DNA of 64,000 nucleotides from Patescibacteria group bacterium. Its GTDB lineage: Bacteria; Patescibacteriota; Minisyncoccia; Phycocordibacterales; JACZSL01. The position numbers and the translations under genes were made by a program. The stretch lies in contig JACZSL010000002.1 in assembly GCA_022574205.1 (NCBI GenBank), positions 11,965-75,964 on the forward strand. The letters are read 5' to 3'. Position 1 is the stretch's first letter. Each line of letters starts with the position of its first letter. Of this stretch, positions 6,386-64,000 are shown piece after piece. The notes under the pieces are model-generated. The model was not told the origin of the DNA. It did not search any database and saw nothing but the letters and a program-made list of their open reading frames with translations.

Positions 6386-7672
6386 TTACACAAACGAGTC
6401 AGGAATGGGAAAATTTTTGGAGAGTTCAAATATCTCGTACCTAATTTTCTTTTTCGTGTTTGCGTCGTCCATATTTTCTAGTGTGTCGATGATAAGTTCC
6501 GCAACACGTGCACATTCTTTTTCGCCAAACCCGCGAGTTGTAATAGCTGGCGTTCCAAATCTTATACCAGAAGGGTCCATAGGTTTGCGTGGATCGTTTG
6601 CAATCATGTTCATGTTGAGTGTTATGCCAACTTTGTCCAACACCGTTTGCGCGTCTTTACCACCCACATTAAGTGAGCCGAAAACATCTGCAAGAATAAG
6701 ATGGTTTGAAGTTCCGCCAGCAAGCATGCGAATATTTCGCGCATGAAAAACTTTTTCCATGGCTTTTGCGTTTTTCAATATCTGTTTGGTATATTTCTTG
6801 AAAGACGGTGATAATGCTTCTTTGAAACAAACTGCTTTGGCAGCAATTTGGCTCATGTGTGGACCTCCTTGAAGCCCTGGAAATACGGCTTTGTTGACCG
6901 CTTTTGCGAGATCTTCACTATTGCGAACAAGGATCATTCCACCTCGAGGTCCCCGAAGCGTCTTATGTGTTGTTGTAGTTATGACATCAAAACCGTAATC
7001 AAAAGGATTTTTATGAGATCCTCCTGCAATTAACCCTGCAACGTGCGCCATGTCTGCGACAGTGTATGCCCCTACTTCACGACCTATCTCTACAAACTTT
7101 TCATAATCAAGTTCTCGCGAATACGCAGAGTATCCTGCAAGTATTATTTTTGGTTTCTCTTTTTTTGCAGTTTTAAGTAATGCGTCGTAATCAATCTCTC
7201 CAGTTTCCAGATCTTTCATGCCATAGCGTACAAAGTTAAATACTTTTGTCATGACTGTCGCCGGGCTACCATGCGTTAAGTGTCCGCCGTGCGAAAGATC
7301 CATTCCGAGAACGGTATCTCCGGGTTTCATTAATGCAAAAAACATCGCGACATTTGCCGGCGCGCCTGAAAGCGGTTGAACGTTAGCGTATTTACAATTA
7401 AAGAGTTTGCGTGCTCTGTCGCGCGCAAGATTTTCTACATCATCAGTAAACTCTTGCCCACCGTAGTAACGCTTGCCGGGATATCCTTCAGAATATTTGT
7501 TGGTTAAAACGCTGCCAAGAGTCTCGAGCACGGCACGCGAGACGTAGTTTTCCGAAGGGATAAGTTCAAGCCCTTCAGCTTGTCGCTTTTCCTCTCCTTT
7601 TATAGCCTTGTAGATTGCTGCATCCTCGGTTTTTAATCTTGAATGTTCCATATTTATAGTAGTGTCGTCCAT
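6386..7672 (-). CDS. glyA: Serine hydroxymethyltransferase
   Basis: LELIPSENYVSRAVLETLGSVLTNKYSEGYPGKRYYGG...; PLP-lysine region THKTLRGPRGG. Confidence 0.95.
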   Translation of the reverse strand: MDDTTINMEHSRLKTEDAAIYKAIKGEEKRQAEGLELIPSENYVSRAVLETLGSVLTNKYSEGYPGKRYYGGQEFTDDVENLARDRARKLFNCKYANVQPLSGAPANVAMFFALMKPGDTVLGMDLSHGGHLTHGSPATVMTKVFNFVRYGMKDLETGEIDYDALLKTAKKEKPKIILAGYSAYSRELDYEKFVEIGREVGAYTVADMAHVAGLIAGGSHKNPFDYGFDVITTTTHKTLRGPRGGMILVRNSEDLAKAVNKAVFPGLQGGPHMSQIAAKAVCFKEALSPSFKKYTKQILKNAKAMEKVFHARNIRMLAGGTSNHLILADVFGSLNVGGKDAQTVLDKVGITLNMNMIANDPRKPMDPSGIRFGTPAITTRGFGEKECARVAELIIDTLENMDDANTKKKIRYEIFELSKNFPIPDSFV

Positions 7673-21420: not shown

Positions 21421-21431
21421 AAGGACTCATG

Positions 21432-21513
21432 TGCCCAGGGGGGGACTTGAACCCCCAAGCCGTGAAGCATACGCCCCTCAAGCGTACGAGTTTACCAATT
21501 TCTCCACCTGGGC
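21432..21513 (-). tRNA. tRNA-Leu (GAG), long variable arm
   Basis: Reverse complement GCCCAGGTGGAGAAATTGGTAAAC..TACGCTTGAGGGGCGTA..GGTTCAAGTCCCCCCCTGGGCA. Confidence 0.8.
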
Positions 21514-22188
21514 TTACAGTGTTTTATTTACGACACTTAATGCTTTTTCTATTTTTCTGCGTTTGCGAGATAAGCATATCACGTTTTTGTCGTAATACAT
21601 TTTTTTTAGGATCTTTAGTGATTCACTTTTTGCAAACCTTAATTGGTGTACGTTACCAAATTTGGAGCACACAATATGCCCTTTCACACTGATTAATTTC
21701 CCGAGCTCCTCTTTTATCCAATCTATGTGTTTTCTACTAGCAGAAGCAAAAACAACGTAAAACATGTAGCTTTTTTTCCAACGAGGATCCCAATACGAAT
21801 AAAAACACCCATCCCCATCATGATGACCTCTAAGAAAATCAAAGAAGTATGTTAGTGGAATTTCTATCTTGCCTATAATTTTTGTCTTGGCTGGACTAAA
21901 GCCAGCACCCAAAAGAAATTTGTACAACTTGACACTACCAAACTGAATTCTTGTGGTTCTTTTGCCAGTATGGGTAGAAATTTTGGTTCCAATTTTAACA
22001 TTAATGTTAAGACAACGCATAAAATTTAAAAGTTGTTCTTTGTCCTTGGAGGTTAAGTCAAAATGTCTTCCATCTATCGAGAGACTTCCATCAGTAGCTA
22101 AAAGCCCCATTGCATATGCAAAATTTGGACTCCACTTGGTACTTATTTCACTATTTCTCTTCACATTAGTCGTGCAATAATCATACAA
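21514..22188 (-). CDS. LAGLIDADG homing endonuclease (two-motif, single chain); its stop directly abuts the tRNA-Leu 5' end
   Basis: LLATDGSLSIDG and FLRGHHDGDGCF LAGLIDADG motifs. Confidence 0.75.
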   Translation of the reverse strand: MYDYCTTNVKRNSEISTKWSPNFAYAMGLLATDGSLSIDGRHFDLTSKDKEQLLNFMRCLNINVKIGTKISTHTGKRTTRIQFGSVKLYKFLLGAGFSPAKTKIIGKIEIPLTYFFDFLRGHHDGDGCFYSYWDPRWKKSYMFYVVFASASRKHIDWIKEELGKLISVKGHIVCSKFGNVHQLRFAKSESLKILKKMYYDKNVICLSRKRRKIEKALSVVNKTL

Positions 22189-34753: not shown

Positions 34754-35200
34754 TTGGGATTCATCCTATATTTATACGAAATATGCTACTATGACGCCAT
34801 GCTTAATGTTTTTCCGGAACTGCTTTTCTTGTCATTTTTTGCGCCGTTAGTGTTGCGTGCCGTTTTAGGTTTCGTATTGTTGTCATATAGTTTGAATCGT
34901 CTCTATAGGCGTAAGCGTGAGTTTGAAGGTCTTTTTCTAAATCATTTTCCCTTAAATGGGAAAACACTGTTGTTAGCGGTAGGTATTCTTGAACTTGTGT
35001 TTGGCTTGGGATTGATTGCTGGCCTCTACACACAAATAATTGCGCTTGGCGTTATTCTTCTCTCACTAACGGCCATTCTTGGTAAAAATCCCGTACTTTT
35101 ATTTAGGAGTAGTCGGCTCATCTACTTTTTTATGTTAGGAATTTCGATTTCACTTCTATTGTCAGGGGCAGGGGGTTTTGCGTTTGACCTTCCACTTTAA
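34754..35200 (+). CDS. hypothetical polytopic membrane protein
   Basis: 148-aa ORF with four predicted TM helices. Confidence 0.35.
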   Translation: MGFILYLYEICYYDAMLNVFPELLFLSFFAPLVLRAVLGFVLLSYSLNRLYRRKREFEGLFLNHFPLNGKTLLLAVGILELVFGLGLIAGLYTQIIALGVILLSLTAILGKNPVLLFRSSRLIYFFMLGISISLLLSGAGGFAFDLPL

Positions 35201-35207
35201 CGTTGCT

Positions 35208-36029
35208 TTACTGATAAGAAGCGATTGCTCTTTCTAGTATCTCCCTTTTTTCAAGATTCTGTTTCCATATACTATTCGAGCGGTTTCCGTTTATGCACAC
35301 GCCGGGAGAGAAATTGATTTCTTTTTGGAATTTTTGTAGATTCTCTTTTCCAACAATAACAACCTCATTTGGCTTTTGAATAGACGAGCCAATATCAAAA
35401 TCGAGAAGGAGTATTTTAATAGTTTCCAAAACGGAGGTGTCTTTTTGGTAGCCGCGCACTCTGCGTGATCTATTATTAAAATTCATACATCCTTCATCGT
35501 CAAAAAATGCTCTTAAAAATTCGCGCTTAAGATGTTTTGGAAATGTATTTACGTTTGAAAAAAGCTCCTGGGATTTCTTTTTTATATGAGCGGCAAGTGC
35601 AACATTAAAATAACTAATTCGGAGTACTCCTGTAGACTTATTACAATAACGAGTGGGTTCAAAGTCGTATATTTCTTTCATAATAGTCTCAACTCTTTTA
35701 ATCAAACTCGTGCTTCTATTATTATAAATACAGCCATGGGTGTTTATTTCTCCATCAAACAAAAAATGAGAAATGAGAAGTACCATGTTCGTATTCCATG
35801 TTGAGAATTCTTTAAAACTTCTTGAACTTTTTCCTTTCCGGTTTTCAGACATCCTAATAATCCTTGTGCGTGACGCGTCCTGGATCATTCTCAATTTTTG
35901 AGTGCTTAGAGGAATGTCGCGTATGTGAAAATAGACTGATGTTTTCGGTCGGCCTGTGATTTTAACAATCTCAGGTAGGGTGTGATCCTGACTTCGTAAG
36001 ACAACGCATTGCTGTTTAAAATTATTCAT
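35208..36029 (-). CDS. LAGLIDADG homing endonuclease (two-motif); its start codon lies 2 nt after the tRNA-Lys 3' end
   Basis: LISHFLFDGEINTHGC and FLRAFFDDEGCMNF motifs. Confidence 0.7.
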   Translation of the reverse strand: MNNFKQQCVVLRSQDHTLPEIVKITGRPKTSVYFHIRDIPLSTQKLRMIQDASRTRIIRMSENRKGKSSRSFKEFSTWNTNMVLLISHFLFDGEINTHGCIYNNRSTSLIKRVETIMKEIYDFEPTRYCNKSTGVLRISYFNVALAAHIKKKSQELFSNVNTFPKHLKREFLRAFFDDEGCMNFNNRSRRVRGYQKDTSVLETIKILLLDFDIGSSIQKPNEVVIVGKENLQKFQKEINFSPGVCINGNRSNSIWKQNLEKREILERAIASYQ

Positions 36030-36030
36030 G

Positions 36031-36103
36031 TCCGCCCAGCAGGACTCGAACCTGCGACCTTGAAGTTAAAAGCTTCCTGCTCTACCAGCTGAGCTATGGG
36101 CGG
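36031..36103 (-). tRNA. tRNA-Lys (TTT)
   Basis: Reverse complement CCGCCCATAGCTCAGCTGGTAGAGCAGGAAGCTTTTAACTTCAAGGTCGCAGGTTCGAGTCCTGCTGGGCGGA; anticodon loop CTTTTAA; unusual C1:G72. Confidence 0.75.
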
Positions 36104-36285
36104 ATGTATTATTATCGCACGAGCTACCAAGACAGCTATGGGCGGATGTATTATTATCGCACGAGCTACCAAGACAGCTATGGGCGGATGTATTATTATC
36201 GCACGAGCTACCAAGACAGCTATGGGCGGATGTATTGTTCGACTGTTATTTACCAAAACAGCTATGGGCGGTTGCCTTTATATAG
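36094..36285. repeat. 42-bp tandem direct repeat array: 3 identical copies, a diverged 4th and a partial 5th; each copy begins with the first 10 nt of tRNA-Lys
   Basis: Unit ctatgggcggatgtattattatcgcacgagctaccaagacag at 36094, 36136, 36178, 36220 (diverged), 36262 (partial); each unit carries a TAATAAT -10-like box. Confidence 0.85.
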
Positions 36286-36355
36286 TAACATAGAGAGGTT
36301 CTACTTTCTAGTTTAAACTTACACGCAAACTTGCGCTAGTTATTATACACGCAAA

Positions 36356-36391
36356 ACCCACGTCAGGACGTACGTCCTGACGTGGGTTTCG
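36356..36391 (-). terminator. 36-bp perfect palindrome (copy B of the CACGTCAGGACGTACGTCCTGACGTG element), likely intrinsic terminator of the holA-like gene
   Basis: aaacccacgtcaggacgtacgtcctgacgtgggttt; on the minus strand the hairpin is followed by TTTT. Confidence 0.55.
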
Positions 36392-36459
36392 TGAACTTTG
36401 CGCGCCCTCCCATAACTCAAGCAGCTGTTTGAGTTATGGAATATTTTAAAAAAATACTT

Positions 36460-37191
36460 TTATAGCCTCAGAATAAACATTTCTAGAGCATTATCTAGAG
36501 CGTGTTTCCCTCTACGAGCATCATGGTATAGCGAGACAAGGTGCGAGGAAAGTTGCTTTAGTTCTTCGGTAGAATATTTGCGTGCCCCTTGTTTTGCTTT
36601 CCGGTAAACAAATGGATTAAGCCCTGCCTCATCGGCTGTATTCGACATGTGGGCTAACAGCATTGTTTTTGTACCCCAGGTCAAAATACCGTGCATCTCT
36701 TCAGCGCTCGTATTATAAAGCTTTCCTTTCTGATATAAGATCCACAACATTTTTTTATTCCTTGCTACAAGTGCGTTGCTTAAATCAAAGATTTTAAACG
36801 GCTTAATGGATTTTTGGCTTTTTACACTCACATGCTCTTCTACTTTTTCAGCGTGTTTAGAAAACTTGCTTACGGTTTTTTTGTCGATCTTTCCTTCAAG
36901 GAAAATAAAAATATTGTCTGACTCAGATATTGCTTTGAGGTTATCTTCGATCTCCTCTTTAGCAACCTCGTTTTCTAACACAGTGTCATAAAGAATTATC
37001 AGCTTCGTTTCAAAAAGTCCCGCGCTTTTGGCCTTCTCTAGTATTTCTCCCTTTTCGAAATGCCAAGCGTCAACACGGAGCGCTGTGACATTTGGCTTTT
37101 TCTTTATTAAGATATCTAAAAGATGGTTTGCTTTCTTTCGCGCTTTTTCGCCGTTTGTACCATAAATGAGATAAATCATAATTTTATTCAC
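36460..37191 (-). CDS. holA: DNA polymerase III delta subunit-like (short)
   Basis: N-terminal IYLIYGTNGEKARKKANHLL... LFETKLIILYD pattern typical of HolA; 4-bp overlap with polA. Confidence 0.45.
   Translation of the reverse strand: MNKIMIYLIYGTNGEKARKKANHLLDILIKKKPNVTALRVDAWHFEKGEILEKAKSAGLFETKLIILYDTVLENEVAKEEIEDNLKAISESDNIFIFLEGKIDKKTVSKFSKHAEKVEEHVSVKSQKSIKPFKIFDLSNALVARNKKMLWILYQKGKLYNTSAEEMHGILTWGTKTMLLAHMSNTADEAGLNPFVYRKAKQGARKYSTEELKQLSSHLVSLYHDARRGKHALDNALEMFILRL

Positions 37192-63695: not shown

Positions 63696-64000
<305 letters not shown>

Follow-up and report, generated by a model that had tools for sequence, protein, structure and literature searches.

A LAGLIDADG gene begins where tRNA-Lys(UUU) ends

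We analysed 64,000 nucleotides (nt) of contig JACZSL010000002.1 from a Patescibacteria group bacterium (hereafter the window), in which an open reading frame (ORF) for a 273-amino-acid (aa) protein of the LAGLIDADG superfamily starts at the 3′ end of a tRNA-Lys(UUU) gene. Both genes lie on the minus strand. A first-pass annotation, made from the sequence alone, had pointed to this protein, and its description was confirmed: the ORF list gives an ATG-initiated frame at 35208..36029 (minus strand) containing both LISHFLFDGEI and LRAFFDDEGC, and the product matched the Pfam family LAGLIDADG_3 (PF14528) with an E value of 1.4e-10, together with the intein-endonuclease parts of several NCBIfam models. 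The locus comprises the following features:

35208..36029, minus strand: LAGLIDADG protein gene, 273 aa, with an N-terminal helix-turn-helix (HTH) and two LAGLIDADG domains (ORF list, Pfam, AlphaFold2 (AF2), Foldseek)
35922..36023, minus strand: N-terminal three-helix HTH-like domain, residues 3-36 (AF2 helices, weak HTH_23 match, conserved motif)
35610..35792, minus strand: LAGLIDADG domain 1, residues 80-140, motif LISHFLFDG (AF2 secondary structure and conservation)
35754-35756, minus strand: putative catalytic D92 codon (read from the sequence)
35319..35537, minus strand: LAGLIDADG domain 2, residues 165-237, motif LRAFFDDEG (conservation and I-DmoI profile alignment)
35493-35495, minus strand: putative catalytic E179 codon (domain 2 motif)
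36031..36103, minus strand: tRNA-Lys(UUU) gene (Rfam RF00005, 68.4 bits; ARAGORN places it at 36030..36103)
36027..36031, minus strand: junction A73-C74-AUG, with CCA, spacer and Shine-Dalgarno (SD) sequence all absent (sequence reading)

The tRNA-Lys gene does not encode CCA. Its acceptor stem, C1-G72, is followed by the discriminator A73 at 36031 and by C74 at 36030, and the ATG occupies 36029-36027. The spacing of 2 nt reported in the first-pass annotation holds when counted from the last acceptor-stem pair, but the start codon is only 1 nt past the discriminator and 0 nt past the end called by ARAGORN. A promoter scan found no promoter-like site between tRNA-Lys and the ORF. Because there is room for neither a promoter nor an SD sequence, co-transcription with the tRNA, as had been proposed, is probably the only simple route of expression. 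The arrangement has the anatomy of a tRNA-punctuated leaderless mRNA, with a start codon at the tRNA processing site, no SD sequence and no separate promoter.

The product is a double-motif LAGLIDADG protein with an added HTH

A protein search returned 965 homologues, and the family is small, forming 204 clusters at 50% identity (E ≤ 1e-3); a protein of the same sequence was also present on contigs from several metagenomes. An alignment of 57 homologues has no large gaps, and 44 of its columns are invariant. H88, F91, G93 and D178-E179-G180-C181 are invariant, while D92 is kept in at least 90% of the sequences. The AF2 model built from the same alignment reached a pLDDT of 91.6. It places HTH helices at residues 3-13, 18-25 and 29-36, followed by a long helix at 43-64, and a further helix at the C terminus. 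Both LAGLIDADG domains are alpha-beta-beta-alpha-beta-beta, the order of elements expected of the superfamily. The HTH region gave a weak HTH_23 match (E 0.035), and its TGRPKTSVY.HI motif is strongly conserved.

Using Foldseek against the PDB, we recovered the TliVMA intein endonuclease domain, many I-DmoI entries, I-Tsp061I, I-WcaI and WhiA; I-DmoI was matched with a probability of 1.00 and a TM score of 0.63-0.69 (normalised to the target). In a profile alignment, residues 153-222 correspond to I-DmoI 91-154, and E179 falls on the catalytic I-DmoI E117. The chain contains two LAGLIDADG helices, each with an acidic residue followed by Gly, and is a bona fide double-motif single-chain LAGLIDADG protein with an added HTH. 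Judged from its sequence and model, it looks catalytically competent.

Several other identities were considered and set aside. An intron- or intein-encoded endonuclease was ruled out, as nothing interrupts the tRNA and the ORF runs from an ATG to a stop of its own; Rfam searches of 34900-36500, in gathering and E-value modes, found only the tRNA, with no RF00028 or other ribozyme. A WhiA-type regulator was excluded because the acidic residues are kept, the HTH is N-terminal and the Pfam WhiA families have no match in the protein. A defence-system origin found no match in PADLOC, and a phage origin was likewise rejected, the only signals being a weak PHROG 'endonuclease' match and one marginal phage match.

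The tRNA-Lys junction is shared by distant relatives

We scanned one genome per species and obtained 80 loci with relatives at 38-61% identity, hosted by Paceibacterota, Kaiserbacteria, Nomurabacteria, Nealsonbacteria and others. ARAGORN placed tRNA-Lys(ttt) directly upstream and on the same strand in 75/80. Three of the 80 end at a contig edge with no upstream sequence and were left out; in all 77 informative loci, which are from different species, the ORF was linked to tRNA-Lys(UUU) or a fragment of it. The gap between C74 and the ATG was 0 nt in 55 of the 75 loci, 1-3 nt in 13 and 5-67 nt in seven. Gaps of 0-3 nt thus account for 68/75, and the longer ones are confined to the seven most divergent loci. 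On this sequence comparison, the tRNA-Lys/ATG junction is ancient and not a local accident.

The most distant homologues adjoin intron-bearing tRNA-Lys genes, the interrupted tRNAs of which are missed by ARAGORN. In L084 (2700-2970), tRNA-Lys(UUU) is interrupted in the anticodon loop by an insert of ~190 nt after position 35, on which Rfam makes no call, and the ORF starts 9 nt past the tRNA 3′ end. In L085 (1820-3110), the order is a tRNA-Lys 5′ half, the ORF and a complete tRNA-Lys with a group I intron after U33 (RF00028, 92.5 bits).

Most loci are flanked by polA-holA at one end and by (doxX)-spoU-hypothetical-murE-like at the other, and the holA-side synteny was found in ~120 loci. Relative to these flanks, the tRNA and ORF are oriented as in the window in 41 loci and inverted in 24. 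Because the unit points either way, the ORF travels with the tRNA and not with its neighbours. Nuclease genes were also sought in the variable upstream region of loci with the ORF (carriers), and none was present; the ORFs found there are DoxX-like, EEP-like, membrane and DnaJ-type. The flanking features in the window are:

34799..35200, plus strand: convergent DoxX-family gene whose stop, 7 nt from that of the LAGLIDADG ORF, bounds the ORF-only indel (described below) on the right
36460..37179, minus strand: holA-like (DNA polymerase III delta) gene; conserved flank to the left of tRNA-Lys
36279..36284, minus strand: TATATA, a low-confidence candidate for the −10 element of the ancestral tRNA-Lys promoter (resemblance to the arrangement in relatives)

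Relatives show TATAAT or TATACT, then ~10 nt and the tRNA, with which the position and context of TATATA agree; a two-hexamer scan did not pick it up.

About one-quarter of carrier tRNA-Lys genes have a T-arm reading GGATCG... (A54, often T58) in place of the canonical GGTTCGA (L013, L018, L019, L022-L024, L029, L034, L036, L038, L046, L052, L056, L057, L062, L069 and L081). The non-carrier sample described next was chosen for GGTTCGA.

Empty and occupied sites differ by the ORF alone

A search of metagenomes for this tRNA-Lys type, by a 3′-half pattern blind to the downstream sequence, yielded 120 loci. Only three metagenome-scan loci carry the ORF (3/104), a fraction that is not an estimate of prevalence because only 20 of 79 carrier tRNAs fit the pattern. 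A comparison of carrier and non-carrier tRNAs for target or immunity positions was discarded as invalid, since the pattern itself fixed the 3′ half. In total, 53 loci share the polA/holA/spoU/murE synteny without the ORF.

These empty loci define the element to the nucleotide. In the empty locus L113, the tRNA ends in GGGCGCAC and is followed by 7 nt and the stop of a convergent gene. In the occupied L028, which is 71% identical to L113, the tRNA likewise ends in GGGCGCAC, directly followed by ATG...TAG and then CTA, the same convergent stop. Similarly, the empty L150, which has the gene order of the window, reads tRNA, TT and DoxX stop (an empty junction of the tRNA 3′ half followed by TTTTATAGCGG), while the window reads tRNA, ORF, 7 nt and DoxX stop. 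In both comparisons the indel is exactly the ORF, empty sites consisting of the tRNA, 2-7 nt and the next gene, and the tRNA of carriers and of ORF-less loci alike was found in either orientation. Presence or absence at one defined site, with an element that is an exact indel, is the pattern by which a homing endonuclease gene is recognized.

Past the tRNA of empty loci, a sensitive hmmsearch detected no degenerate trace of the ORF other than the truncated L087, and the empty sites are therefore clean. Disrupted copies were found in L063 and L082. The L087 copy (770-1569) is truncated after ~80 residues and runs into an archaeal-type ribosomal protein S3Ae-like gene; it is either a decayed copy beside a foreign gene or part of a chimeric contig.

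In a tree of PolA and HolA, carriers and non-carriers are interspersed, with at least nine state changes among 59 taxa, and the ORF-less L187 and L097 are nested inside carrier clades. The tRNA-Lys of L187 is oriented opposite to that of the nearest carriers (L028 and relatives), and ORF loss and inversion or replacement of the tRNA may have been concurrent. Conservation across distant relatives had earlier been named as a sign of a stable housekeeping role. The arrangement is indeed so conserved, but the role does not follow: many syntenic relatives lack the gene, which rules out essential housekeeping.

The ORF is under strong purifying selection

Where dS was measurable, dN/dS was 0.06-0.09 (~0.07), and the ORF is intact in ~75 of 78 species. 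Mean pairwise identity of the product was 0.55, compared with 0.59 for PolA, 0.60 for the Mur ligase, 0.54 for SpoU, 0.46 for the hypothetical protein and 0.37 for HolA. Divergence of the ORF correlated with that of the flanks (Spearman 0.31-0.65), and the major clades of the ORF tree correspond to those of the PolA and HolA tree. These findings suggest that inheritance has been largely vertical, under strong purifying selection. No clear case of horizontal transfer was seen in neighbour-joining trees, which are poorly resolved at 55-60% identity.

Two pairs of loci depart from uniform divergence. L046 (1-1200) and L047 (2738-3940) are 99-100% identical over the upstream region, the tRNA and the whole ORF, with flanks at ~82% and a second block of 100% identity at L046 2998-3197. 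This mosaic is ambiguous and could reflect recent recombination or homing, or a chimeric metagenome-assembled genome. Between L040 and L054, the ORF is ~70% identical and the flanks ~83%, a contrast that may reflect a faster rate in the ORF.

A probable homing endonuclease lineage anchored at tRNA-Lys

We consider it moderately probable that the ORF belongs to a free-standing LAGLIDADG homing endonuclease lineage anchored at the 3′ flank of tRNA-Lys(UUU), a single gene in the genomes of this Paceibacteria/Parcubacteria-type Patescibacteria clade. The tRNA-Lys promoter, multiplied in the window by the 42-bp array described below, would transcribe tRNA and ORF as one RNA; the absence of space for a second promoter or SD sequence argues for such sharing. 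Trailer removal of the RNase Z type, after the discriminator of the CCA-less tRNA, would free a (C)AUG mRNA that could be translated as a leaderless or near-leaderless message. Its product, an HTH joined to an I-DmoI-like double LAGLIDADG module, is predicted from fold and conservation to be a site-specific DNA endonuclease. LAGLIDADG endonucleases are Mg-dependent enzymes that recognize sites of ~18-22 bp and leave 4-nt 3′ overhangs. The likely target is the ORF-less tRNA-Lys 3′ junction, where repair from an occupied allele would copy the ORF alone. This target is suggested by the ORF-only indel at one site, by the position of the ORF behind the tRNA in any orientation or neighbourhood, and by the distant relatives that sit in intron-bearing tRNA-Lys genes. 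The lineage would be of great age and would have passed mainly by vertical descent under strong purifying selection, with repeated losses. If so, the family would be a source of compact HTH-LAGLIDADG enzymes, their probable target lying in a conserved tRNA gene.

Several observations weigh against this account. Every sampled contig of the window's species carries the ORF, so that there is no empty allele within the population to home into. The flank past the tRNA is not conserved among empty sites, which is unusual for a 20-bp LAGLIDADG target, and only the tRNA is shared by all sites. The main weakness is that the occupied allele retains the whole tRNA and the far side of the empty site is unconserved, so that the account explains neither the target nor the escape from self-cleavage. 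More speculatively, the protein might bind inside the tRNA gene by means of its extra HTH. Homing endonuclease genes are expected to invade, fix, decay and vanish unless they keep moving, and PolA-like conservation over such depth is not predicted by this classical cycle. Finally, the protein phylogeny largely follows the host markers, and each ORF-less lineage could be a loss, which would suit a useful host gene equally well.

The latter points bear on an alternative that we regard as rather unlikely while giving it real weight, namely that the ORF encodes a domesticated LAGLIDADG protein that serves the host, its tie to the tRNA being an expression device only. Such a protein might bind or nick DNA at specific sequences, or it might act on the tRNA-Lys locus or the transcript of that locus; lineages with no need of it would have lost it. 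Domestication would account for the dN/dS of ~0.07, for conservation like that of PolA and above that of HolA or the neighbouring hypothetical protein, for a phylogeny broadly congruent with the flanks in stable synteny, and for fixation in all sampled contigs of the window's species. The junction, nucleotide-exact in 55/75 loci, also points to selection on expression. There are precedents in WhiA, which is among the fold matches, and in HO endonuclease, a domesticated LAGLIDADG protein. Yet ~50 syntenic relatives, scattered among the carriers, lack the ORF, the indel consists of nothing but the ORF, and truncated or disrupted copies occur. The catalytic acids are kept, unlike in WhiA or many maturases; the most distant relatives are found with group I introns in tRNA-Lys, a typical setting for selfish elements; and the neighbouring genes point to no host pathway.

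Taken as a homing endonuclease lineage, the family has kept one nucleotide-exact address in at least 77 species and evolves as slowly as PolA, yet is dispensable in interspersed relatives. This makes it a natural model for the persistence of selfish nucleases in very small, streamlined genomes, or for the point at which one turns into a host gene.

The 42-bp array is probably separate from the nuclease

The first-pass annotation had also noted that the tRNA 5′ end is duplicated in a 42-bp tandem array, which we could verify. Tandem Repeats Finder (TRF) reported 36092..36236 with a period of 42, 3.5 copies, 100% matches and a score of 290, and a degenerate extension reaches 36271. The array is the strongest tandem repeat of the 64-kb window and therefore not a chance feature. 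Its units are:

36105-36146, 36147-36188 and 36189-36230, minus strand: three identical 42-bp units (TRF and exact matches)
36231..36272, minus strand: diverged older unit U0, tRNA-like CCGCCCATAGCT followed by GTTTTGGTAAATAACA..., behind ancestral promoter-proximal sequence

Each unit is composed of T, the first 12 nt of the tRNA, GTCTTGGTAGCTCG, TGCGATAAT and AATACA. Every unit thus begins with the first 12-13 nt of the tRNA and ends in TGCGATAATAATACA, which abuts the next tRNA-like start. The extended −10-like TGCGATAAT is read at 36111-36119, 36153-36161 and 36195-36203, 7 nt before the tRNA-like start. We infer that TGCGATAAT may be a promoter element, and since each unit has one, tandem promoter duplication is the simplest reading of the array; a two-hexamer promoter scan found no minus-strand promoter within it. 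A structured RNA in the array was rejected on a fold z-score of 0.79.

The pairing of nuclease gene and rearranged tRNA had been ascribed to repeated local double-strand-break repair, in which the nuclease cuts the adjacent tRNA-Lys again and again and faulty repair builds the array. This we consider improbable. It would explain why the array copies the tRNA 5′ end beside a nuclease gene, and it might explain the varying copy number: among assemblies of the window's species, we counted one, two, three, or at least three units with a scaffold gap. Copy number thus differs among assemblies, but it may reflect assembly collapse as much as real variation: L002 has a scaffold gap, and several contigs end at the array. 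Two further carriers could be read in the same way: L023 has a 10-nt pseudo-start with a 70-nt insert, and in L085 a duplicated tRNA 5′ half flanks the ORF.

The distribution of such duplications argues the other way and has largely refuted the break-repair model. The junction is present in 77/77 loci, while an upstream copy of the tRNA 5′ end was found in only two of ~77 carriers, the window and L023. We examined 102 tRNA-Lys loci from the metagenome scan, nearly all ORF-less, for 5′-end duplications, and found short duplications or arrays in at least five (L120, L154, L157, L185 and L198), that of L157 consisting of three 88-nt units. The common layout is promoter-proximal sequence, tRNA positions 1 to ~12-14, a spacer and the intact tRNA. 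Moreover, the CCGCCCATAGCTGTTTTGGTAAATAACA of U0 also occurs in the ORF-less L154 and L186, with the common leader CCGCCCWTAGCTGTTTTGGTA, which makes U0 independent of the nuclease gene. Because such duplications exist in ORF-less relatives too, the 42-bp array is best read from these sequences as a lineage-specific amplification of an older duplication of promoter and tRNA 5′ end, separate from the nuclease.

Promoter-proximal sequence, tRNA start and spacer are likewise duplicated upstream of tRNA-Lys in the lineages of L186 and L023. In L154, the pseudo-fragment and the tRNA of the locus both have an A-to-T change at position 7, which resembles concerted change or a requirement to pair with the 3′ acceptor strand.

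Three other loci of the 102, in which the LAGLIDADG ORF is absent, have an ORF of ~81-86 aa between a decayed tRNA-Lys 5′ fragment and the intact tRNA:

L104, ~850-1180: small ORF insertion
L172, ~7250-7580: small ORF insertion
L184, 1396-1641: small ORF insertion, with a 5′ fragment extending to the anticodon

The ORFs of L104 and L184, the two tested, are GIY-YIG proteins (Pfam, E 1e-13 to 1e-16). These three insertions of the GIY-YIG type also count against break repair by the LAGLIDADG nuclease.

That the ORF is an inactive relic, arisen by chance or in decay and now without function, is most improbable: two disrupted copies and one truncated copy exist elsewhere, but the ORF is intact in ~75/78 species with a dN/dS of ~0.07, 44 invariant columns that include the active-site motifs, and a confident fold model.

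Comparison with known systems

The family shares with I-DmoI and I-Tsp061I, single-chain enzymes encoded in archaeal introns, and with the inteins TliVMA and PI-SceI a two-domain pseudo-dimeric fold with an acid ending each motif. It differs from I-DmoI and the inteins in lying outside any intron or intein, in its extra N-terminal HTH and long connecting helix, in its ~14% identity to solved structures and in a start codon that abuts a tRNA gene. WhiA also combines LAGLIDADG and HTH and shows long-term vertical conservation, but its HTH is C-terminal and its acids are lost, whereas the tRNA-Lys family has an N-terminal HTH, keeps the acids and is missing from many relatives.

SegB is a free-standing GIY-YIG homing endonuclease gene in the tRNA gene cluster of phage T4. 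There, too, an intron-less endonuclease ORF is wedged in by tRNA genes and the ORF alone is present or absent. In contrast, the tRNA-Lys family is LAGLIDADG, resides on cellular chromosomes and is fused with nucleotide precision to one tRNA in at least 77 species; a search for relatives in phages found none.

In mitochondrial tRNA punctuation, mRNA 5′ ends are made by excision of the upstream tRNA, and in Haloferax a tRNA-like element is reportedly cut to give a leaderless mRNA. To our knowledge, no bacterial chromosomal gene family is known to obtain its mRNA 5′ end by excision of an upstream tRNA. The junction would predict such tRNA-punctuated leaderless expression in bacteria; the zero-length spacer is what points to it here.

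Within the candidate phyla radiation (CPR), LAGLIDADG genes are known within 16S and 23S introns or between rRNA genes (PMC11270868; PMC8172020). These share the phylum, the superfamily and a landing site at a stable RNA gene with the family described here, which is separate, comprises ~200 clusters at 50% identity and lies at the tRNA-Lys 3′ end. More generally, tRNA flanks can mislead annotation and assembly in CPR genomes, through array collapse and intron-blind tRNA calls.

A second LAGLIDADG family at tRNA-Leu(gag)

The window contains another LAGLIDADG ORF (21514-22188, minus strand, 224 aa), which ends exactly at the 5′ end of a tRNA-Leu(gag) gene (gap 0 nt):

21431-21513, minus strand: tRNA-Leu(gag) (ARAGORN)

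In a whole-window scan, this tRNA-Leu(gag) fell below the Rfam tRNA gathering score. The tRNA-Leu-linked family comprises at least 1,475 proteins. In all four genomes sampled (L207, L209, L210 and L211; hosts include Jorgensenbacteria, Azambacteria and others), it has rplS on one side and tRNA-Leu(gag) on the other, and 1-9 nt separate its stop from the tRNA 5′ end. Kinship of the two LAGLIDADG proteins of the window was rejected, as they share nothing beyond the motif. That two independent nuclease families are each fixed to a single tRNA gene points to a general niche, not to coincidence.

It is possible, although we lean slightly towards doubt, that Patescibacteria harbour an undescribed class of tRNA-anchored nuclease genes, for which a tRNA gene is both address and expression platform. 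As a whole, such a class would comprise the two unrelated LAGLIDADG families and the GIY-YIG ORFs behind duplicated tRNA-Lys 5′ fragments; its members would take the tRNA promoter, with RNase Z or RNase P cuts yielding leaderless mRNAs, and would have lasted throughout the divergence of the host families, under purifying selection of housekeeping strength. If real, this class would be an exception to the cycle of invasion, decay and loss, or a step toward domestication. A survey of tRNA introns in Patescibacteria reported HNH genes in tRNA-Asn introns and none at tRNA-Lys or tRNA-Leu flanks (PMC13011429), and in the literature we found no paper on a tRNA-Lys- or tRNA-Leu-linked LAGLIDADG gene.

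At the end of the otherwise AT-rich window, positions 63706-63878 contain GC-rich simple repeats with 18/21-bp units and ~39 CGG triplets.

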